Assembly: GCA_036397815.1 (NCBI GenBank)
Contig: DASWIE010000030.1
Coordinates: 3,272-67,271 of the forward strand
DNA: 64,000 nt
Source: Candidatus Limnocylindria bacterium
GTDB taxonomy: Bacteria > Chloroflexota > Limnocylindria > QHBO01
Reading direction: 5' to 3'
In this document: positions 39,145 through 50,658 of the stretch, in pieces
How the letters are laid out: every line of letters starts with the position of its first letter
How positions within the stretch are numbered: position 1 is the first letter of the stretch
The notes under the pieces: generated by a model
Database searches by the model: none
Told to the model about the DNA's origin: nothing
What the model saw: only the letters and a program-made list of their open reading frames with translations
Position numbers and translations under genes: made by a program

Positions 39145-39675
39145 ATGGCTGTCCCGATGGAGATCGACGTCTGGCAGGGGGAGATCGCCGAGCTCGAGGT
39201 CGACGCCCTGATCGTGCCGGCGACCGAGAGCCTGTTCATGACGATCCCGGTCGCCCGCGCCGTGAAGCGCCGCTCGGGTGAGAGCGTGGAGCGCGACGCC
39301 GTCGAGCAGGGACCGATCGAGGCCGGATCCGCGGTGGTCACCTCCGGCGGAGACCTGGCTGCTCCCTACATCATCCACGCCGTCGCGGTTGGCCATGACA
39401 ACCGGCCCGATGCCGATCGCGTGAGACGCGCCATCCACGCGGCCTTCGAGATCGCCGCCAGGCTGGGGCTGCACCGGCTGGCGACCGCGCCGATCGGGGT
39501 CGACCGCGGGGTCTTCAGCCCCGAAGAGGGAGCGGCCCTGATGGCCGAGGTGCTCGCCTCCCGTTCGAGCTCGGGAGACTCCCTGCCATCCTCGCTGGTG
39601 GTCGCCGTCATTAGCCCGAGCGAGGCGACCGCGTATCGCGCAACCCTGGAGCCGCTGCGAACCGTGCGCCGATGA
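39145..39675 (+). CDS. Divergent macro-domain-like protein (ADP-ribose binding/processing fold)
   Basis: EVDALIVPATESL...TSGGDLAAPYIIHAVAV resembles the macro-domain core (VDAIVNAAN...GGGV...T.AG.L.AKYVIH). The NAAN and Gly-rich motifs are replaced here, so the call is tentative. Confidence 0.55.
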   Translation: MAVPMEIDVWQGEIAELEVDALIVPATESLFMTIPVARAVKRRSGESVERDAVEQGPIEAGSAVVTSGGDLAAPYIIHAVAVGHDNRPDADRVRRAIHAAFEIAARLGLHRLATAPIGVDRGVFSPEEGAALMAEVLASRSSSGDSLPSSLVVAVISPSEATAYRATLEPLRTVRR

Positions 39676-39917
39676 CGGTCGACGGCACCGCCGACCTCGC
39701 GGCCGAGATCCGGCGCCGTGGCCTGGCTGCGCCGGCGCGCCTGCTGCTCGAGGCACATCGGCCCCTGCAGCCGCTGCTCGGTGACCTCGCCACCTTCGTC
39801 AGCCCGCTGCTCAGGCCGCTCCTGGGTGGCCGCGCGTCGCTGCTTGGCGCGGCATTCGGCGACGACAGCGCGATCGACCGCCTGATCGAGCAGCTCGCCG
39901 ACGCGGACGATGACTAG
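39672..39917 (+). CDS. Hypothetical 81-aa protein with an acidic C-terminus (..LADADDD)
   Basis: ATGA overlap with the upstream gene and 0-nt junction with the next. No recognisable family. Confidence 0.45.
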   Translation: MTVDGTADLAAEIRRRGLAAPARLLLEAHRPLQPLLGDLATFVSPLLRPLLGGRASLLGAAFGDDSAIDRLIEQLADADDD

Positions 39918-40760
39918 ATGCCGAACCTCGGCGAGCTGATCGGCAGCCTGGTAGCCCTGATCGGCTCGCAGGTCGCGGCATCCTCGCTGCGGCTCGGGCC
40001 ATTGCCGGCGGTGACCATCTTCTCCGTCGGGCTGGTGCTCCTCTCGCTGGTGGCTCGCCCGGCGACCCGCTGGACGACCCGCGACCTGGGTCGGCTGGCC
40101 GGGATCCCGCGCGCCATGGCCCTCGCCGCCGAGTCCGGCGCGGCGGCCGGCTTCTCCCTGGGGACGGCCGGCGTCGCGCGAGCCACATCGGCCTTCGATC
40201 GGATGCAGACGCTGGCCGCGTTACCGATCCTGGGTTTCGTCGCCCGCGCCGCGGCCAGCGCCGGTGTGCCGCTGCAGGTCACCGCGAACGATCCGGTAAC
40301 GGTCCATCTCGCCGAGGCGGTGTTGGCGGAGGCACATCGGTCCACCCAGACCCCGGAGCGAGCCGAGCGCTCCGGAGCGCAGTACCTGGGCGAAGGTCGC
40401 CCCGCGGTCGCCGGCATGACCCTGGCCGACCCATCCAGGCCAGAAGCCACCTTCGTCGCCGGCGGTCTGGCCGAGGAGTCGCTGCTCCTGTTCGAGGGAA
40501 CCCTGCCCGGCGCCTCCTGGACGAGCGTCGGCACTGCCGCCGCCTCCCAGGCTGCATCGGTACTGCTCACGGCAGAGGGAGCGCTCATCGGTCCGGAGCT
40601 CTACCAGGCTTCGAGCGATCTGCGGGCGGCGGGCCACGACCGCACGGGCGTGCTCGCCTCGAACCGGCTCATCCTGGCGGTCATCGCGGTCCTGGTCATC
40701 GGTTCCGCCTTGGCCCTTGCCGCTGGAGTCGACCTGGCCGGGCCCCTGGCAGGGCGCTGA
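39918..40760 (+). CDS. Hypothetical polytopic membrane protein (280 aa)
   Basis: Several hydrophobic helices at both termini (IGSLVALIGSQVAA, VTIFSVGLVLLSLVA, LILAVIAVLVIGSALALAAG). Its stop is contiguous with the next start. Confidence 0.55.
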   Translation: MPNLGELIGSLVALIGSQVAASSLRLGPLPAVTIFSVGLVLLSLVARPATRWTTRDLGRLAGIPRAMALAAESGAAAGFSLGTAGVARATSAFDRMQTLAALPILGFVARAAASAGVPLQVTANDPVTVHLAEAVLAEAHRSTQTPERAERSGAQYLGEGRPAVAGMTLADPSRPEATFVAGGLAEESLLLFEGTLPGASWTSVGTAAASQAASVLLTAEGALIGPELYQASSDLRAAGHDRTGVLASNRLILAVIAVLVIGSALALAAGVDLAGPLAGR

Positions 40761-40761
40761 G

Positions 40762-41379
40762 GTGCGTCGCTCGCTGCCAGGGGCGACGGTCGTCGTCGTC
40801 GGGCTGCTCCTGCTCCTCGACTACGTCATCATCAACCCGGTCCTCGCCACGCTCGCTGACCTGGTCCTCGAGCTCGTTGTCCTGCTGGCTGCGGCGGCCG
40901 CCCTGGCCGGCGGTGTCGCGCTGGTGCTGCGGCATTGGACGGAGCTGGTCGAGCGCCGCGGCAACCCGCCCGGGTCCCTCGCGCTGTTGGCCGGCTTCGC
41001 CGTGATCCTGCTGGCGGGCTTCTATCCGGGGTCCAGCGGCTCGACGGATCCCGCGGTTCGCTGGATCGTTGCCGCCCTGCTGGCTCCGCTCATCGCGGCG
41101 CTCTTCGCCCTCCTCTTCGTGTTCCTGCTGGGCGCCGCCCGACGCGGCCTGACGATCCGTACGCGAGAGGGCGCCCTGATGCTGGCGGCGGCTGCCATGG
41201 TCGTCGTCCTGCTGCTGCCACTGGGCGGCTCCGCTGGCGACTGGCTGGCCAGCGCCGCCGACTGGACCCTGTCGGTGCCGATCGGCGGGGCATTTCGCGG
41301 GCTGCTGATCGGCGTCGCGATCGTGACCGCGGTTCACGCCGCGCGGGTCCTCCTGGCCGTGAACGGCGCCGAGGAATGA
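40762..41379 (+). CDS. Hypothetical polytopic membrane protein (about 205 aa, about 6 TM)
   Basis: Hydrophobic throughout (VVVVGLLLLLDYVIINPVLATLADLVLELVVLLAAAAALAGGVALVL...). GTG start at 40762 just after the upstream stop; the track ORF starts at 40717. Confidence 0.55.
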   Translation: MRRSLPGATVVVVGLLLLLDYVIINPVLATLADLVLELVVLLAAAAALAGGVALVLRHWTELVERRGNPPGSLALLAGFAVILLAGFYPGSSGSTDPAVRWIVAALLAPLIAALFALLFVFLLGAARRGLTIRTREGALMLAAAAMVVVLLLPLGGSAGDWLASAADWTLSVPIGGAFRGLLIGVAIVTAVHAARVLLAVNGAEE

Positions 41380-42392
41380 CCGATCGTACGACGCGCCGAT
41401 CCTCGCGCGCGGGGTTTGCCCCGCTGGCCCTTGTCGTCCTCCTCGGAGGGGCGGTGCTCCTGCGCCCGGGTGACGATGGGGGGCCGCTGCTCCTGGCGAA
41501 CCCGGATCGCACCCGCGTCGCGGAGCTGCAGGCCGCGTTCGCCGCACTCCCCGAGGCGCCACTGGTGCTCGTCGGCCTGGACGCCGACCTTGGCACCTAT
41601 CCCGAGATTCGGGTGGCAGTGCGCGCGGCCTTCGCCGACCTGCTGGCACGCGACGCACGGCTTGCCGTTGTCAGCTTCACGCCGGAGGGCCGCGCGATCG
41701 CCAGCGCCGAGCTCGATCGACTGCAGCGCGATGGATTCGGCGGGGACGAGCTCCTGGACCTCGGATTCATCGCTGGCGCCGAGGCGGGCATGGTGCGGTC
41801 GGTGACGGCTCTGCTGCCGGTCGGGGTCGAAGGCTCCGTGGCCGATGCCATCCGCGAGGCGGATGCCGGGATGGGGGCCTTCCAGCTGGTGCTCGTCGTC
41901 GGCGGCGGCGAGCTGGGGCCGCGGACCTGGGTCGAACAGGTCGGCACCCGACTGCCGAGCCTGCCGATTGCCGCGATCGTGCCCACCTTCGCGCAGCCTG
42001 AGGTTGCCCCATACCTGCGCACCGGCCAGCTGGTCGCGCTGCTCGCCACCCTGCGCGACGACGCGGCGTACGCCGCCGACGTCGGCGGTGCCCAGGCGGC
42101 TCCCGAGCGGGTCCCGAGCGCGCTGGCGATGCTTCTCGGCATGCTCGTCGCGCTCGGCGCGCTGGGGCGTGCCGTGACGGCTGGCCTGTGGGGTGTCGGG
42201 CCGGCACCAGCCGACGGGGCGGGGCCATCCAGCCGACGCCGGCGCGGCGGCCGCGAGGCCGATATCGCGACGGATGCAGGCCCCACAGAGGCGGACGCTG
42301 CGGCTGAGCCGGAGGCCGGCTCCGAAGCCGCCACCGCCGCCGACGTCGCGGAGCCTGCCTCGGGCGCCGAGCCGGAGGGCAACGCGCGGTGA
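41376..42392 (+). CDS. Hypothetical bitopic/2-TM protein with a large extracytoplasmic domain and an acidic C-terminal tail (338 aa)
   Basis: N-terminal anchor FAPLALVVLLGGAVLL, second TM LAMLLGMLVALGALGRAVTAGLWGV, tail EADAAAEPEAGSEAATAADVAEPASGAEPEG. ATGA overlap with the upstream gene; the track ORF 40935 is a different N-terminus in the same frame. Confidence 0.55.
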   Translation: MTDRTTRRSSRAGFAPLALVVLLGGAVLLRPGDDGGPLLLANPDRTRVAELQAAFAALPEAPLVLVGLDADLGTYPEIRVAVRAAFADLLARDARLAVVSFTPEGRAIASAELDRLQRDGFGGDELLDLGFIAGAEAGMVRSVTALLPVGVEGSVADAIREADAGMGAFQLVLVVGGGELGPRTWVEQVGTRLPSLPIAAIVPTFAQPEVAPYLRTGQLVALLATLRDDAAYAADVGGAQAAPERVPSALAMLLGMLVALGALGRAVTAGLWGVGPAPADGAGPSSRRRRGGREADIATDAGPTEADAAAEPEAGSEAATAADVAEPASGAEPEGNAR

Positions 42393-43030
42393 GCGGATTC
42401 CTCGGTACCGACCTCGCCGGCGTGATCGCCACCTGGGTGGCGGCGCTCGTCACCATCGTGGTCTGGTCATACCTCCTTGGTGAGCGCCGCCCCTTTCGCC
42501 TCGCGCAGCACCTGCTCGCCGGGCTGGCGACCGGCTATCTCGTCCTGCTGGCGGTGCGCGAGGTCCTGCTGCCGCGTCTGCTCGAGCCGCTGGCCCGGGA
42601 TCCAGCCGCCAACGTGCTGCTCCTTCCGGCGCTCGCCATGGTCGGGGCGTTGGCCGGCGCGCGCTGGTTGCCGCGGCAGGTCGTGGCACTCCCGGTTGCG
42701 GTGCTGGTCGGCGCGACGACGGCTTTCGCGCTCGGCGGCGCGGTTGTCGGGACGCTGCTCCCGCAGCTGGCGGCGAGCGTCCTCCGCCCGGGCACGGCGC
42801 TGACGGTGGTCAACGGCCTCATCGGTCTGGTGATCACGGGCCTGGTGGTTCTCGGCTTCCTGCACGGCGTGCCGCGCGGTCGGATCACGGGTGTGGCGGC
42901 CGGCGCCGGGCGCTGGCTGCTGATCGGTGCCATCGGCGGCTGGCTCGGCTTCCTCCTCGTCAGCCGGTTGGCGCTGCTGGTCGACAGGCTGGGCTTCCTG
43001 CTCGGCGACTGGCTGGGGCAGGCGCGATGA
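42389..43030 (+). CDS. Hypothetical polytopic membrane protein (213 aa, about 6 TM)
   Basis: GTGA overlap at its start and ATGA overlap at its end. Uniformly hydrophobic helices. Confidence 0.55.
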   Translation: MSGFLGTDLAGVIATWVAALVTIVVWSYLLGERRPFRLAQHLLAGLATGYLVLLAVREVLLPRLLEPLARDPAANVLLLPALAMVGALAGARWLPRQVVALPVAVLVGATTAFALGGAVVGTLLPQLAASVLRPGTALTVVNGLIGLVITGLVVLGFLHGVPRGRITGVAAGAGRWLLIGAIGGWLGFLLVSRLALLVDRLGFLLGDWLGQAR

Positions 43031-44718
43031 CCATGGAAGGGCCGGTCGCCGGGTTGCTGCCCTCGCCGAGCAAGCGGCCCGGGCCGGCGGCTGAGCTGTC
43101 GCTGCTGGTGGACGTCGGCTCCGCCTGGACGAAGGCCGTCGTGGTGGCGCGCGCGCGCGGGCGTTGGCGGATCGCCGGACATGCGGCTCAACCGAGCGCC
43201 TGGGGCGAGGAGGAGCTCGTGAACGCGCTGGTCGCGCGCCTGGCCGAGGGCGCGGACCGGCGCGTGGCGGACCGCCTGGCGGAGCTCCTGGGGACCGCCC
43301 CCCGAATCGCCTGTCATACGCCACGACGCGCGGGGCGCATCGGGCTCGCCGCCATCTCCGCGGAGCTTTCAGGAGCCTCCGCGCGTCGTGCGGCGGAGTC
43401 TGCCGGCTGGACGGTCGCCGAGGCGGCGACGGCCGATGACGGCCGCTCGCTCGTCGATCGCCTCTCAGCGCTCCAGGCTGCCGACGTGGACGCCTGGCTG
43501 CTGGCGGGTGGCTTCGACCACGGGCGGGCCGGCCAGGCGCTGGAGATGGCGGGCCTGGTCGCGGCGGCACGGGGTGCATCCCGAACTCCGGTGCTGTGGG
43601 CGGGATCCGCTGCCCTCGCGGATGAGGTCGCCACGCTCTTCGAGCCGGGTGCCCTGCAGACGGTCGCCAACCCGCGGCCGTCGGCGACCGAGGAGGATCT
43701 CGTCCCGCTGCGCCACACGCTCGAAGGCCTGCTGCAGCAGCTCGTGGAGCCGGGCGGCGTTCGGCAGCTGACGCCGGTCTCATTCCGTCGCGCCGTCGCC
43801 GAGCTCGCGCGTTCGACCGAGCGCCGAGTCCTGGGCGTCGACCTGGGCGCCCGCTACGCCAGCTGGGTGCTCGCCGACGCGGATGGGACCGCGGAGAGCC
43901 GGGTCTTCGCCGAGGGCGGGCTATCGGCCTCGAGCCTGGTCGGGCCGGGCGGTCCGGCGCGCCTTGCGAGGTTGCTTCCGCTGGCGATCGACGAGCTGGC
44001 GGTGGCCGATGCGCTGCAGAACCTGCGCGCCCGGCCGGGCACCCTGCCGCAGACCGAGGACGAGCTCGCGATCATGCACGGTGCGGCTCGTCAGCTGCTG
44101 GCGCAGGGAGCGGCCGACGAGGGAGCGATCTCGGGCATCGACCTGCTCATCGGGTCGGGGCGCACGCTGGCCGCGGCACCACGGCCCGGCCAGGCGGCCC
44201 AACTGCTGCTCGACGGCGTGCGCCCGCTCGGGGTCACTGAGCTGGCGATCGACGCCGCCGGCGCGCTGCCGCCGCTCGGTGCGCTGGACGACGCCGAGAT
44301 CCGAGAGGGGATGGGCATGCTCCGAGATGACCTCCTCACGCCGCTCGGCGCCGCCGTCGTCTGTCGCGGCGGCCATCCTGGGCAGGTGGTGATGCGCGTG
44401 ACCGTCCATCGGGCTGGATGGCCCACCACGGGCCCGGTCGAGCTGCGCAGCGGGCAGCTGCAGCTGCTGCCCCTCGGACGGGGCCAGTCGGCTGAGCTCG
44501 AGATCGAGCTCGAAGCCGGCGTGACGCTGGGGGGGCCACGACGCGCGCGGCGCGCCCAGGTGACGGTCACCGGTGGGGCGCTGGGGCTGATCCTCGACGC
44601 GCGAGAGGTCCCGCTGTCAATGCCGCGTCGCGCCGACGACCGTCGTGCCGTGCTCGCCGGTTGGCGCGATGCCTTCGCCCGCGAGCCCTCGACACCGGTG
44701 CCCGGAGACCAGCCGTGA
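43027..44718 (+). CDS. Hypothetical 563-aa cytoplasmic protein with ASKHA (actin/Hsp70/sugar-kinase)-like nucleotide-binding motifs
   Basis: N-terminal LLVDVGSAWTKAVVV resembles phosphate-1 motifs of ASKHA ATPases (D.GS..TK, as in the GlmL/MutL-like, BadF/BcrAD-activase and FtsA/PilM families). A second VLGVDLGARYASWVLAD motif lies at about residue 270. No family could be assigned by eye. Confidence 0.55.
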   Translation: MTMEGPVAGLLPSPSKRPGPAAELSLLVDVGSAWTKAVVVARARGRWRIAGHAAQPSAWGEEELVNALVARLAEGADRRVADRLAELLGTAPRIACHTPRRAGRIGLAAISAELSGASARRAAESAGWTVAEAATADDGRSLVDRLSALQAADVDAWLLAGGFDHGRAGQALEMAGLVAAARGASRTPVLWAGSAALADEVATLFEPGALQTVANPRPSATEEDLVPLRHTLEGLLQQLVEPGGVRQLTPVSFRRAVAELARSTERRVLGVDLGARYASWVLADADGTAESRVFAEGGLSASSLVGPGGPARLARLLPLAIDELAVADALQNLRARPGTLPQTEDELAIMHGAARQLLAQGAADEGAISGIDLLIGSGRTLAAAPRPGQAAQLLLDGVRPLGVTELAIDAAGALPPLGALDDAEIREGMGMLRDDLLTPLGAAVVCRGGHPGQVVMRVTVHRAGWPTTGPVELRSGQLQLLPLGRGQSAELEIELEAGVTLGGPRRARRAQVTVTGGALGLILDAREVPLSMPRRADDRRAVLAGWRDAFAREPSTPVPGDQP

Positions 44719-45758
44719 ACGGGCCGGCGCTGCACCGGGTGCGCGTGCCGCGTGGCACCGTGCCGAGCGTCATGGTCGGCAGCGACGTCGCTCCCGACCA
44801 GGTGCTCGGTCTCCATCGGCGGCCAGGCCCCGCCGTACGGGTCCAGCTGGCGACGAAGCTGCGCGTGCGATCCGATGCCGTCTCGGCCCTGCTCCTGGTC
44901 CGGCCGGGCACCCGCCTGGCGGAGGGCGACGCGATCGCGCGAGGTGCCGACGGACGCGAGGCACGCGCGCCGACGGGCGGCCTGCTGCTGGGCGTGTCGG
45001 CGATCGACGGTACTGCTCTGCTTGCGCCGCTCGGGCCCGAGGAGCCGGTCATCGGCCATGTGCATGGCCGCATTCGCGCGGTGGAGGACGGGGCCATCAC
45101 GGTCGAGGTCCCCGGCGCCCTGGTGCGGGGCGTTGGGGGCACGGGCGAGGCGGTCCACGGCGAGCTGGTGGTCGCCGTCCACGATCCCGGCGAAGAGCTC
45201 AGGGCGGCGGCAATCGACGTGGGCGCGACTGGCAGGATCCTGGTGGGCGGGTCGCGCGCCTCGGCCGAGACCCTCACGCGGGCACGCGCCATGGGGGTGG
45301 CGGGGATCGTGCTCGGCGGGGTGCTGGACAAGGAGCTGCGCGACTTCGAGGCCATCCAGCGTCGCCGTCGGGAGGTTGGAGGCCTGGTCGGCGCGTTCGG
45401 AGTGCTGCTGCTGGAGGGGTTCGGCAAGGTAGGCATCGACCCGCAGCGCTTCGGATGGTTCAAGGCTCATGCCGGTCGGATGGCCAGCCTGTTCGGCACC
45501 GATGGGCTCCTGTACGTCTACGACGCCGAACCCGCGCCGGGACGCCGGACGCTGCCGCGCGTCGGCGAGCGGGTGATCGCGCACCGCCGCCCGTTCCAGG
45601 GACGCGCCGGCGTGCTGGTGGCGGAGCTGGATGACCTGCACGCGACGCCATCGGGCATCGCCACCAGGATGGGCCTGGTCCGTTTCGAGGACGGACGGCT
45701 GGCGCCCGTGCCGCTCGCCAATCTGGAGGCCACCCTGCCGGTGCCCCCCAGCGCCTGA
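44715..45758 (+). CDS. Hypothetical 347-aa protein with a C-terminal KOW-like motif
   Basis: C-terminal GERVIAHRRPFQGRAGVLVAELDD...RMGLVRFEDGRLAPVPLANLE resembles the KOW motif of NusG/L24. Mid-region RPGTRLAEGDAIARG...GGLLLGV resembles a barrel-sandwich (lipoyl/biotinyl-like) hairpin. GTG at 44715 overlaps the upstream stop (track ORF from 44661). Confidence 0.5.
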   Translation: MNGPALHRVRVPRGTVPSVMVGSDVAPDQVLGLHRRPGPAVRVQLATKLRVRSDAVSALLLVRPGTRLAEGDAIARGADGREARAPTGGLLLGVSAIDGTALLAPLGPEEPVIGHVHGRIRAVEDGAITVEVPGALVRGVGGTGEAVHGELVVAVHDPGEELRAAAIDVGATGRILVGGSRASAETLTRARAMGVAGIVLGGVLDKELRDFEAIQRRRREVGGLVGAFGVLLLEGFGKVGIDPQRFGWFKAHAGRMASLFGTDGLLYVYDAEPAPGRRTLPRVGERVIAHRRPFQGRAGVLVAELDDLHATPSGIATRMGLVRFEDGRLAPVPLANLEATLPVPPSA

Positions 45759-45776
45759 CCCGTATCCTTCTCGCTC

Positions 45777-46268
45777 ATGGACCGATTCACAGCGGCAGCG
45801 CCGAGCTCCGGCGCGCTGCGAAGCGACTCGCCGCAGCACACCCGGGCCCTCGGACGCGCGATCGGCACGCGGGCCAGGCCGGGAATCGTGCTGGCACTGG
45901 TCGGGCCGCTCGGCGCCGGCAAGACGCAGCTGGCCAAGGGGGTCGCCGACGGGCTCGACGTCACCACCGTCGTCAACAGCCCCACCTTTGTGCTCATGAA
46001 CGAGCATGTCGGCCGGCTGCGCCTCTTCCATGTCGACGCGTACCGCCTCGACGACCCGGGGGAGGCGCTGGCGGTCGGCCTCTTCGACGAGCGCCAGGCC
46101 GAGGGCGTGACCGTGGTGGAGTGGGCGGATCGCCTGGATGGCTGGCTGCCCCTGGAGCGCATCGACCTCTGGATCGAGCCTGATGCCGCCGGCGAGGACG
46201 TTCGCGCCATCCGCTGGGCTGCCCACGGCGACGCGCATGCGGCGCTGGCGGCGGAGGCGCTGCGATGA
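45777..46268 (+). CDS. tsaE: tRNA threonylcarbamoyladenosine biosynthesis protein TsaE
   Basis: Walker A LVGPLGAGKTQLAKG, then VVNSPTFVLMNEH..........HVDAYRL. Confidence 0.88.
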   Translation: MDRFTAAAPSSGALRSDSPQHTRALGRAIGTRARPGIVLALVGPLGAGKTQLAKGVADGLDVTTVVNSPTFVLMNEHVGRLRLFHVDAYRLDDPGEALAVGLFDERQAEGVTVVEWADRLDGWLPLERIDLWIEPDAAGEDVRAIRWAAHGDAHAALAAEALR

Positions 46269-50193: not shown

Positions 50194-50582
50194 GCGTGCG
50201 CACCCAGGTGATGACCAACGCCGCGCCCGCGGCGATCGGCCCCTACAGCCAGGCGATCCATGCCGGCGGCCTCGTGTTCACCGCTGGCCAGCTCGGGCTC
50301 GACCCGACCGGCGGCGAGCTGGCGGCCGGCGCAGCGGCGCAGGCGGATCGGGCGCTCCGCAACCTGTCGGCGATCCTGGACGCTGCCGGCACCTCGCTCG
50401 AGCGCGTGGTGAAGACCACCATCTTCCTGGCCGACATGGGGGACTTCGCGGCGGTCAACGAGGTCTACGCGGCGCACTTCTCGACCCCATATCCGGCCCG
50501 TTCGACGGTTGCGGTCAAGGCGCTCCCCAAGGACGCTCTGGTGGAGATCGAGGCGGTCGCGCTGGTCGAGACGCGCGGTTGA
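50190..50582 (+). CDS. ridA: RidA/YjgF-family reactive intermediate deaminase
   Basis: APAAIGPYSQAI.AGGLVFTAGQLGLDP.TGEL, LERVVKTTIFL.DM.DFAAVNEVYA..F...YPARS.V.V.ALPK.ALVEIEAVA. Confidence 0.88.
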   Translation: MSVRTQVMTNAAPAAIGPYSQAIHAGGLVFTAGQLGLDPTGGELAAGAAAQADRALRNLSAILDAAGTSLERVVKTTIFLADMGDFAAVNEVYAAHFSTPYPARSTVAVKALPKDALVEIEAVALVETRG

Positions 50583-50658
50583 CCGGCTTCATGCACCACG
50601 CATACCATCGGCGCCACTGTCCGTTCGATTTGGAGCACCCACGGGAGCACCCACACAC

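Follow-up and report, generated by a model that had tools for sequence, protein, structure and literature searches.

GlmL, or MutL (PF13941; TIGR01319), is an accessory protein encoded between the genes for the glutamate mutase subunits in Clostridium tetanomorphum and C. cochlearium, and its assumed working model is a cycle of the reactivase type. In the diol/glycerol dehydratase reactivases DdrAB/GdrAB and in EutA, an ASKHA (actin/Hsp70/sugar-kinase-like) ATPase has an obligate partner that is not itself an ATPase, and its ATP/ADP cycle serves to exchange subunits or cofactors, not to carry out small-molecule chemistry. Hydantoinase A-type ASKHA subunits work in multi-subunit complexes, and NqrA, a cytoplasmic subunit that lacks cofactors, is docked on small membrane subunits with six transmembrane helices. 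Here, we describe an ASKHA protein of 563 amino acids (aa) encoded in a 64,000-nucleotide stretch of DNA from Candidatus Limnocylindria bacterium (Chloroflexota; assembly GCA_036397815.1, contig DASWIE010000030.1, positions 3,272 to 67,271 of the forward strand), the whole of which we call the window. Its gene lies in a contiguous cluster in which seven families are all present (39672-45758, + strand), in the order orf81, DUF6754, TM220, p338, TM213, ASKHA and p345. We consider it probable that the ASKHA protein is the cytoplasmic, nucleotide-controlled switch subunit of a conserved, seven-component, mostly membrane-embedded and probably envelope-linked system.

The window protein shares with GlmL/MutL its Pfam family, an ASKHA core with a Rossmann-like insert and a DxGSxxTK phosphate-1 motif, and relatives with canonical motifs also have GGTDGG and DIGGATTD. 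Unlike GlmL/MutL, it is ~120 aa longer, with a conserved C-terminal beta domain, and falls far below the equivalog and subfamily cut-offs. The long form is never found beside glutamate mutase; it is always found beside p345 and, outside Bacillota, beside four membrane proteins and orf81. The hydantoinase A-type subunits (9h03, 5l9w, 5svc/5m45) are the best structural matches (E 1.9e-8 to 3.5e-7) and likewise have an ASKHA core with large insertions, but the window protein has no profile match to them, no HyuB-like partner, TM-scores (template modeling scores) of only 0.13-0.33 and a membrane-associated context. Compared to DdrAB/GdrAB and EutA, there is no B12 enzyme client, the partner consists of barrel-sandwich, alpha/beta and KOW domains and is not DdrB-like, and the assembly would be membrane-associated. 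PilM-PilN-PilO, FtsA-FtsN and MreB-MreC-MreD/RodZ resemble the present case in that the gene for a cytoplasmic ASKHA protein accompanies genes for bitopic and small polytopic membrane proteins; the fold match to PilM and FtsA is strong, and the predicted cytoplasmic tails of p338 carry short repeated peptide motifs in most Chloroflexota. Unlike in those systems, there is no sequence-level membership, the partners are unrelated to PilN/O, FtsN or MreC/D, and an extra C-terminal domain and p345 are present. Finally, p345 members match the RnfC_N and NQRA_N barrel-sandwich domain as NqrA and RnfC do, but this domain is very common, TM213 and TM220 have no similarity to Rnf/Nqr membrane subunits in the PDB, and flavin or Fe-S motifs are absent.

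Family, fold and nucleotide motifs of the ASKHA protein

A preliminary description, made by a model from the DNA letters alone, had proposed that the 563-aa open reading frame (ORF) encodes an ASKHA ATPase. The ORF is a genuine gene, with a G+C content at third codon positions (GC3) of 0.86, a match to PF13941, more than 450 homologues and 1062 cluster representatives in an exhaustive search. PF13941 (MutL/GlmL) is the sole Pfam match (97.4 bits vs. a gathering threshold of 27, E 1.1e-27, residues 26-428), and the alignment spans profile positions 2-442 of 450. The NCBIfam GlmL models align only over residues ~26-247, the N-terminal half of the protein, and all score below their cut-offs: 40 bits vs. 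475 for the GlmL equivalog NF040745, 37.3 vs. 204 for TIGR01319 (glmL_fam) and 24.3 vs. 600 for NF040744 (Or-4). Hydantoinase_A (PF01968) and Hydant_A_N (PF05378) have no match in the window protein even at E<=1; relatives with canonical motifs give sub-threshold to borderline matches to these families. Pfam FtsA, PilM and MreB do not match the protein, and sequence and profile searches of PDB chains found no relative of it or of its family profile. Cysteines of the BadF/BcrAD type, which bind a dimer-bridging [4Fe-4S] cluster, were sought in a 62-sequence alignment, and no Cys occupies an invariant or near-invariant column.

A first AlphaFold2 (AF2) run, based on a shallow alignment of sequences 64-88% identical, gave a predicted local distance difference test score (pLDDT) of 64 and uninformative Foldseek scores. 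It was superseded by a second run on the 62 sequences, to which full-length relatives of 23-57% identity had been added from an exhaustive phmmer search, and which reached a pLDDT of 92.3 and a predicted TM-score (pTM) of 0.91. In this model, two RNase-H-like beta-beta-beta-alpha-beta-alpha-beta-alpha subdomains begin at residues 24 and 268 (strands and helices E24-30/E34-43/E46-56/H61-73 and E268-273/E277-283/E289-295). Taken together with PF13941, the model divides the protein into a core of residues ~24-430 and a C-terminal beta domain and helix at ~437-551. A Foldseek search of the PDB with the model gave 154 matches at E<=1e-3. The best were N-methylhydantoinase 9h03_A (E 1.9e-8), acetophenone carboxylase Apc 5l9w and acetone carboxylase beta (5svc_B, 5m45_B), followed by PilM, FtsA, Ppx/GppA, LsrK, Hsp70s and HgdC/BCR-type activases, with probabilities of ~1.0. 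The activases 1hux, 4eht and 9gai matched with TM-scores (target) of 0.45-0.49 and actin-like proteins of the FtsA/PilM/MreB group with 0.33-0.38 (0.36-0.38 at probability 1.0 for PilM and FtsA), and in a viral library Hsp70 homologues alone were found.

The ASKHA fold of the window protein is thus established, and ASKHA membership, as first proposed, is borne out by the profile match, the AF2 structure and the Foldseek matches to the PDB (probability 1.00). Of the four families that the preliminary description had offered as candidates, the GlmL/MutL-like one clears a curated threshold, the nearest solved fold is that of hydantoinase-A, and BadF/BcrAD and FtsA/PilM are remoter structural relatives. 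On the profile evidence, we assign the window protein as a divergent long-form member of GlmL/MutL, in the hydantoinase-like branch of the ASKHA superfamily.

Two further parts of the protein stand out. The Rossmann-like insert in subdomain I, which has a loop of the GGTDGG type, could be a second phosphate or ligand site. It resembles the B12-binding-like fold 2yxb with a TM-score of 0.60, taken from the first, low-confidence model. Separately, the family profile shows a weak likeness of the insert to the MoeA/Cnx1 molybdopterin-binding domain ('SGGVDMGD'; E 0.04). Conservation within the family is highest at a motif in the C-terminal beta-rich domain, GGxxGxI(I/L)DAR(G/E)xPL (G516, G517, G520, D524, R526, P529), and a profile search found no sequence relative of this domain in the PDB.

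The preliminary description had drawn attention to two motifs, LLVDVGSAWTKAVVV and VLGVDLGARYASWVLADADGT, and read both as phosphate-1. Both motifs are real, but the secondary structure of the model places them at the beta1-loop-beta2 elements of subdomains I and II, and they are therefore the PHOSPHATE-1 and PHOSPHATE-2 motifs of a single ASKHA fold. In the 62 sequences, which extend down to 23% identity, D29, G31, T35, G161, G162, G193, D272, G274, G378 and D396 are at least 90% conserved, and D409, G418, G520, D524 and R526 are invariant. Within 31 Limnocylindria sequences, D29-V-G31-S-A-W-T35-K36 is invariant. The Asp and Gly residues expected of further nucleotide motifs were found in part: D272 and G274 of phosphate-2 and G378 of the adenosine motif are kept, and several phosphate-contacting positions are substituted.

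A comparison of lineages shows, at the level of sequence, a progressive degeneration of the nucleotide motifs. In the order phosphate-1, insert loop, third motif, phosphate-2 and adenosine, Bacillota, Riflebacteria-like and low-GC marine members have DxGSTTTKA, GG(T/V)DGG, AGN, D(I/L)GGATTD and GSGG. Most Chloroflexota have DxGSxxTRA, GGTDGGA, AGN and GVDxGxxxTT (the adenosine motif was not scored), and the Limnocylindria clade of the window has DVGSAWTKA, GGFDxGR, AGS, GVDLGARYxxW and GxGR. For phosphate-2, the window has DLGARYAS, compared to D(I/L)GGATTD in canonical relatives and DxGxxxTT in other Chloroflexota, and its adenosine motif is GSGR (G376, G378) in place of GSGG. Core Asp and Gly residues of both phosphate loops survive in the window protein, whereas several phosphate-contacting positions do not. 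Nucleotide binding by the window protein is plausible, and with several motif residues substituted in this lineage its dependence on nucleotides is putative; the Limnocylindria proteins may bind the nucleotide differently or serve mainly as a scaffold. In the same clade, a CHTP motif (residues 96-99; 43312-43323, + strand) has a near-invariant C96 and an H97, T98 and P99 that are invariant within Limnocylindria, and it is not conserved in other lineages. This motif is possibly a functional site peculiar to the lineage, alongside its degenerate nucleotide motifs.

Conservation of the seven-gene cluster

Close homologues of the ASKHA protein (55-95% identity) come from 'Candidatus Limnocylindria' (Chloroflexota) metagenome-assembled genomes (MAGs). 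A scan of one genome per GTDB species gave 141 relatives, and the best 80 of these 141 are nearly all labelled Limnocylindria or Chloroflexota. Many of the 1062 cluster representatives found by the exhaustive search, at E<=1e-3, are 550-620 aa long and align over residues ~25-550, and thus have the C-terminal domain. Distant relatives that carry a name come from Anaerolineales, Anaerolineae, Dehalococcoidia, Candidatus Ozemobacteraceae, a Bacillota MAG and the cultured Clostridium sp. 'deep sea' (WP_195158549.1). One of them, from Anaerolineales (P0154, 33% identity), has the same seven-gene arrangement between unrelated flanking genes.

We fetched 80 Limnocylindria loci and 80 diverse metagenome loci and built iterative hidden Markov models for the seven families. 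All seven occur in the same order in 95 of the 163 Chloroflexota loci, and the order differs in none of the 163. All but a few of the remaining loci are cut by contig ends; in the few uncut exceptions, either a gap of fitting size stands where at least one member escaped detection, or the match to MutL was fragmented. Conservation of the cluster extends over considerable sequence divergence: the ASKHA proteins of 82 metagenome loci share ~30% identity with the window protein and a median of 46% among themselves. The flanking genes vary between lineages. That the ASKHA gene follows directly on four membrane-protein genes, as the preliminary description had noted, is confirmed by hydropathy (DUF6754, a protein with 5-6 transmembrane helices, a bitopic protein with two and a protein with six). 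It had also suggested that the protein is the cytoplasmic part of a membrane complex, and two findings support this strongly: the four membrane proteins co-occur strictly with it in more than 160 loci, and there are gene fusions.

In other lineages, the same families are permuted and sometimes fused. Two loci of 35% GC with a T9SS-tail protein nearby (L170 and L171) have the order orf81, ASKHA::p345, DUF6754, TM220, p338, TM213; a locus of 67% GC (L172) has orf81::ASKHA, p345, DUF6754, TM220, p338, TM213; and L165, where the protein's cluster includes a Candidatus Ozemobacteraceae member, has TM213, orf81, ASKHA::p345. The ASKHA protein is fused at its N-terminus to orf81 (P0188/L172) and at its C-terminus to p345 (P0149, P0150, P0220), which argues for a direct functional and physical coupling to both. 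In Bacillota, only the ASKHA and p345 pair remains, with a small transmembrane protein. Versions of the ASKHA protein with a transmembrane anchor occur in some Bacillota and Chloroflexota (P0243, P0146, P0247). Among the MAG proteins of these two phyla, L166:2457-6371, P0247 and P0243 are single-pass proteins with a cytoplasmic ASKHA part and a large N-terminal ectodomain (TSP3 repeats; peptidase M1), and the neighbors of the first encode another M1 peptidase, of 1020 aa, SpoIIT and SpoIID.

Partner proteins and features of the window

Coordinates of the cluster members and of the parts of the ASKHA protein are given in the table.

Table. Features of the seven-gene cluster, the ASKHA protein and the adjacent Macro-domain gene in the window
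Feature	Coordinates	Strand	Description
Macro-domain gene	39145..39675	+	ADP-ribose-binding or hydrolase-like; between alr and orf81; stop overlaps orf81 start (ATGA)
orf81	39672..39917	+	81-aa small subunit; first gene of conserved cluster
DUF6754 protein	39918..40760	+	280 aa; PF20539, E 2.5e-18; N- and C-terminal transmembrane helices around ~190-aa domain
TM220	40762..41379	+	5-6 transmembrane helices; likely GTG start at 40762, 2 nucleotides past DUF6754 stop; mechanical ORF from 40717
p338	41376..42392	+	bitopic; transmembrane helix, ~230-aa alpha/beta domain (conserved WVEQV), transmembrane helix, acidic tail
TM213	42389..43030	+	six transmembrane helices; always directly upstream of ASKHA gene in Chloroflexota
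ASKHA gene	43027..44718	+	563-aa long-form GlmL/MutL-family protein (family by profile); ATG start
PHOSPHATE-1, LLVDVGSAWTKAVVV	43102..43146	+	residues 26-40; D29, G31, T35 near-invariant family-wide
Rossmann-like insert in subdomain I	43324..43671	+	residues ~100-215, from AF2 secondary structure; loops GGFDHG 161-166, AGS 192-194
PHOSPHATE-2, VLGVDLGARYASWVLADADGT	43828..43890	+	residues 268-288; D272, G274 kept; canonical GG(A)TTD part lost
ADENOSINE-type motif LLIGSGR	44143..44163	+	residues 373-379; GSGGVL in canonical relatives; G378 near-invariant
C-terminal beta-rich domain and terminal helix	44335..44679	+	specific to long form; past end of Pfam MutL model
p345	44715..45758	+	347 aa; GTG start overlapping ASKHA stop; barrel-sandwich hybrid, middle alpha/beta, C-terminal KOW-like domain

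The G+C content of the window is about 70%, and many overlapping mechanical ORFs result. The genuine genes of the locus were told apart by a GC3 of 0.84-0.90, by homology and by matching gene calls in a related 2.2-Mb contig (L001). The long antisense or out-of-frame ORFs over the cluster, which have up to 715 aa (44091-46238 (-), 42467-43783 (-), 40935-41375 (+) and others), are artefacts of a G+C content of ~74% and have no homology support. The start of p338 was corrected: a mechanical ORF of 485 aa from 40935 is genuine only from the ATG at 41376.

By the positive-inside rule, the ~190-aa domain of the DUF6754 protein is probably cytoplasmic, and the ~230-aa alpha/beta domain of p338 is probably extracytoplasmic. 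Outside Limnocylindria, p338 has an N-terminal (double) zinc ribbon in 37 of 39 complete copies and an acidic disordered region of 150-750 aa with hydrophobic-P-[DEP]-W-[LIMV] ('LPDWL') repeats, for which the mean is 3.4 per protein and the maximum 13, compared to 0.03 after shuffling. Examples are found in L083:4914-8051 and in L085, L107, L116 and L135. The Limnocylindria p338 proteins are without the zinc ribbon and without the PDWL-repeat region. In one relative (P0260), the same repeats, as PPWLL, are on the C-terminus of the ASKHA protein itself.

The barrel-sandwich domain of p345 was matched by RnfC_N in 13 of 31 members (best E 2.3e-7), by NQRA_N in 10 of 31 and by Biotin_lipoyl in 9 of 31, and no Lys is conserved in its hairpin. 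The KOW-like domain matched KOW in 10 of 31 members and a KOW domain of Spt5 in the PDB (E 4.5e-4), where p345 also matched NqrA (E 0.014). All homologues of p345 are annotated as hypothetical. In profile searches, neither TM213 nor TM220 had a PDB relative, TM220 had no Pfam relative, p338 had no relative in Pfam or the PDB, and DUF6754 had none in the PDB. TM213 and TM220 are not paralogues of each other, and internal duplication among the cluster proteins was rejected, since all 21 hhalign pairs had probabilities of <=11%. Two other candidate identities were also set aside. An Rnf/Nqr-like complex, with p345 in the place of NqrA or RnfC and TM213 and TM220 (~210 aa, six transmembrane helices) in the place of RnfA/E, was rejected, except for the generic barrel-sandwich domain, because no Rnf/Nqr chain came up in PDB searches with the profiles of TM213 and TM220, which are not paralogues. 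An anti-phage defense system was rejected because none of eight proteins had a PADLOC match.

In the window, the cluster is embedded in a + strand block (28138-52116) that contains rpoA, cdaA, cdaR, glmM, glmS, acpS, nnrD, alr and a Macro-domain gene before the cluster and tsaE, tsaB, rimI, tsaD, ksgA, ispE, ridA and glmU after it, and the cluster seems to have been inserted between alr and tsaE. Overlaps of 4 nucleotides (ATGA/GTGA) occur at five junctions, namely Macro/orf81 and four inside the cluster. No promoter-like or terminator-like site was found inside the cluster; a scan of 34-52.5 kb gave one promoter-like site only (50579-50608, within the ridA/glmU overlap) and no + strand terminator. 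A regulatory RNA upstream was considered and rejected: at the gathering score, Rfam matched one tRNA and nothing else across the window and eight related loci. The Macro gene is present in Limnocylindria, including L001, and is missing from all 82 metagenome loci that represent other Chloroflexota; it is a Limnocylindria-specific neighbor, outside the conserved system.

A gene associated with the cluster in other Chloroflexota hints at a link to the cell envelope. In 41 of 52 non-Limnocylindria Chloroflexota loci with room for it, an eighth gene follows p345 and encodes a protein of ~190 aa with an acidic N-terminus, a transmembrane helix preceded by NR(T/S)F(L)I, a Thr/Pro-rich spacer and a C-terminal [LVM]PxTG followed by a hydrophobic segment and RRLR. 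From its sequence, we read this C-terminal signal as a sortase-type sorting signal. Examples directly downstream of p345 are L084:6259-6831, L087:5626-6195 and L113:12848-13393. A link of this gene to LysM was discarded: it came from a single long member (L106) with two LysM domains, and the conserved feature is the LPXTG-type signal.

Envelope or lipid genes are also neighbors of the cluster in several contexts, including glmM, glmS, alr and glmU in the window, Wzz in L165, SpoIID and SpoIIT in L166, cdsA, a lipid kinase and an RlpA-like gene in L170 and Bac_transf and PMT_2 in L172. The glmM gene of the window is genuine (475 bits vs. a cut-off of 447.55). A recurrent link to glmM was dropped as evidence, because in 22 metagenome loci the PGM/PMM gene close to the cluster is no bacterial GlmM (163 bits vs. 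447.55). The LPXTG gene, the ectodomain of p338 and the envelope and lipid neighbors in several independent contexts suggest an envelope-related role for the seven-gene system.

Possible functions and implications

Our favored explanation is that the ASKHA protein would work as a nucleotide-controlled conformational switch, by analogy with the ASKHA reactivases (GlmL, EutA, DdrA), Hsp70 and PilM/FtsA. It would form a cytoplasmic subcomplex with p345, through its family-specific C-terminal domain, and with orf81, and this subcomplex would dock on a membrane platform made of DUF6754, the two polytopic proteins and the bitopic p338 with its outside alpha/beta domain. An ATP-dependent cycle in the cytoplasm could then be passed to the platform and to the outside domain of p338, and would serve a process at or beyond the membrane, probably the biogenesis or maintenance of the cell envelope.

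Several observations weigh against this explanation. The Foldseek TM-scores are low (0.25-0.49), because of inserted and extra domains. The window protein has GGFDHG for GGTDGG, AGS for AGN, DLGARYAS for DxGGATTD and GSGR for GSGG, and these substitutions make ATPase activity uncertain in Limnocylindria. The six partner families have no relative of known function in Pfam, NCBIfam, PADLOC or the PDB sequences other than generic barrel-sandwich and KOW domains. The membrane topology was derived from hydropathy and the positive-inside rule. Literature searches on DUF6754, PF13941, TIGR01319, GlmL and actin-like clusters of Chloroflexota found nothing relevant. Finally, the envelope link rests on anecdotes of gene neighborhood and on the LPXTG gene, which is absent from all 77 Limnocylindria loci.

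One alternative is that the ASKHA protein is an enzyme, a catalyst like those of hydantoinases, oxoprolinases, acetone carboxylases or kinases that uses ATP to activate a small-molecule or lipid-linked substrate, with p345 as a second catalytic or carrier-like subunit and the membrane proteins as a transporter or a module for delivering the substrate, so that uptake would be linked to trapping at the cost of ATP. The closest solved folds are indeed ATP-dependent N-methylhydantoinase and the ASKHA subunits of acetophenone and acetone carboxylases, and the borderline Hydantoinase_A and Hydant_A_N matches of canonical-motif relatives lead in the same direction. Moreover, the invariant D409, D524 and R526, with G520, lie together in or beside the C-terminal domain, as expected of a catalytic or ligand site; the barrel-sandwich domain of p345 is biotinyl/lipoyl-like; and the two proteins with six transmembrane helices, together with the outside alpha/beta domain, could be a transporter with a tethered binding protein. 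However, neither hydantoinase family matches the window protein and no cluster contains a HyuB-like gene, p345 lacks a conserved Lys for biotin or lipoate in its hairpin, and no transporter family is detectable in TM213 or TM220. The degeneration of the phosphate motifs in Limnocylindria, though the whole system is kept, is also harder to square with an obligatory ATP chemistry, and we regard an enzymatic role as unlikely.

Similarly unlikely, in our view, is an actin-like cytomotive filament or scaffold that polymerizes on a membrane platform in the manner of MreB, FtsA, PilM or GspL, has little or no enzymatic role and would be a pseudo-ATPase in Limnocylindria. Such a protein would be consistent with PilM and FtsA among the best structural matches, with the pairing to bitopic membrane proteins (as in PilM-PilN, FtsA-FtsN and GspL), with the transmembrane anchor of some relatives and with the degenerate nucleotide motifs of Limnocylindria. 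The repeated PDWL motifs on the predicted cytoplasmic tail of p338 in other Chloroflexota, and the C-terminal copies of this motif in the ASKHA protein P0260, would also fit. However, the profile places the protein in the GlmL/hydantoinase branch, and a review counts the 'glutamate mutase' family among those members of the actin superfamily that do not polymerize (PMC5597319). In addition, Pfam FtsA, PilM and MreB gave no match and no amphipathic membrane-targeting helix was identified, and the Limnocylindria p338 proteins lack any PDWL motif, yet the system is kept.

The least probable alternative by far, a genuine GlmL that acts as an ATP-dependent accessory or reactivating chaperone for a B12-dependent mutase (glutamate, ornithine/lysine amino- or methylmalonyl-CoA mutase), could draw on the Pfam MutL gathering score, on the name 'glutamate mutase L' given to relatives in the sources, on the resemblance of the insert to the B12-binding fold noted above and on one clade with a gene for a B12-binding domain and meaB divergently upstream (L097:2872-3324 (-), L124:3444-4592 (-) and five other loci), but is contradicted by scores five- to tenfold or more below the NCBIfam GlmL cut-offs, by invariant partners that are membrane proteins and a barrel-sandwich/KOW protein, by the extra C-terminal domain past the 450-position Pfam model and by the absence of a mutase gene from the conserved neighborhood, there being no B12-dependent mutase at 28-52 kb of the window or in L001, L083, L170 or L172. 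The MeaB and B12-binding neighbors occur in 7 of 26 loci with room, in a single clade that also shares the unrelated prs and fpg, and are probably lineage-specific synteny.

Returning to the switch subunit as the favored role, a broader and more tentative possibility is that the cluster encodes an undescribed trans-membrane machine. In it, an ASKHA ATPase of the GlmL/hydantoinase branch, and not an ABC, AAA+ or P-loop protein, would act with its barrel-sandwich/KOW partner to power or gate an extracytoplasmic envelope process, for example one involving wall-anchored (LPXTG) proteins or precursors. Such a machine might extend across Chloroflexota, Riflebacteria-like and FCB-like bacteria, with a two-gene core in Bacillota. 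The fold and the Pfam family are already known. To our knowledge, no description exists of the long-form subfamily, of p345 as its obligate partner or of the seven-gene membrane system, and none of the papers in the library searched mentions DUF6754, PF13941 or TIGR01319.

For the long-form subfamily as a whole, with its hundreds of clusters at 50% identity, the public name 'glutamate mutase L' is almost certainly a misnomer. What began as an isolated ASKHA protein is now part of a defined seven-gene module with fusions and permutations, six of whose seven members have no recognizable function. The module is near-universal in Chloroflexota, a large and poorly studied phylum, and in Limnocylindria it lies inside a super-operon of housekeeping and cell-wall-precursor genes. 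Experiments are within reach, since Clostridium sp. 'deep sea' (CP063353), which carries the two-gene core, is in culture. It is a realistic prospect that the complete system will prove to be a new type of membrane machine driven by an ASKHA protein. Were a membrane complex indeed driven by the ASKHA protein, it would represent a new class of membrane-associated ASKHA machinery beside PilM, FtsA, MreB and GspL, and would provide a concrete handle on the envelope biology of Chloroflexota.

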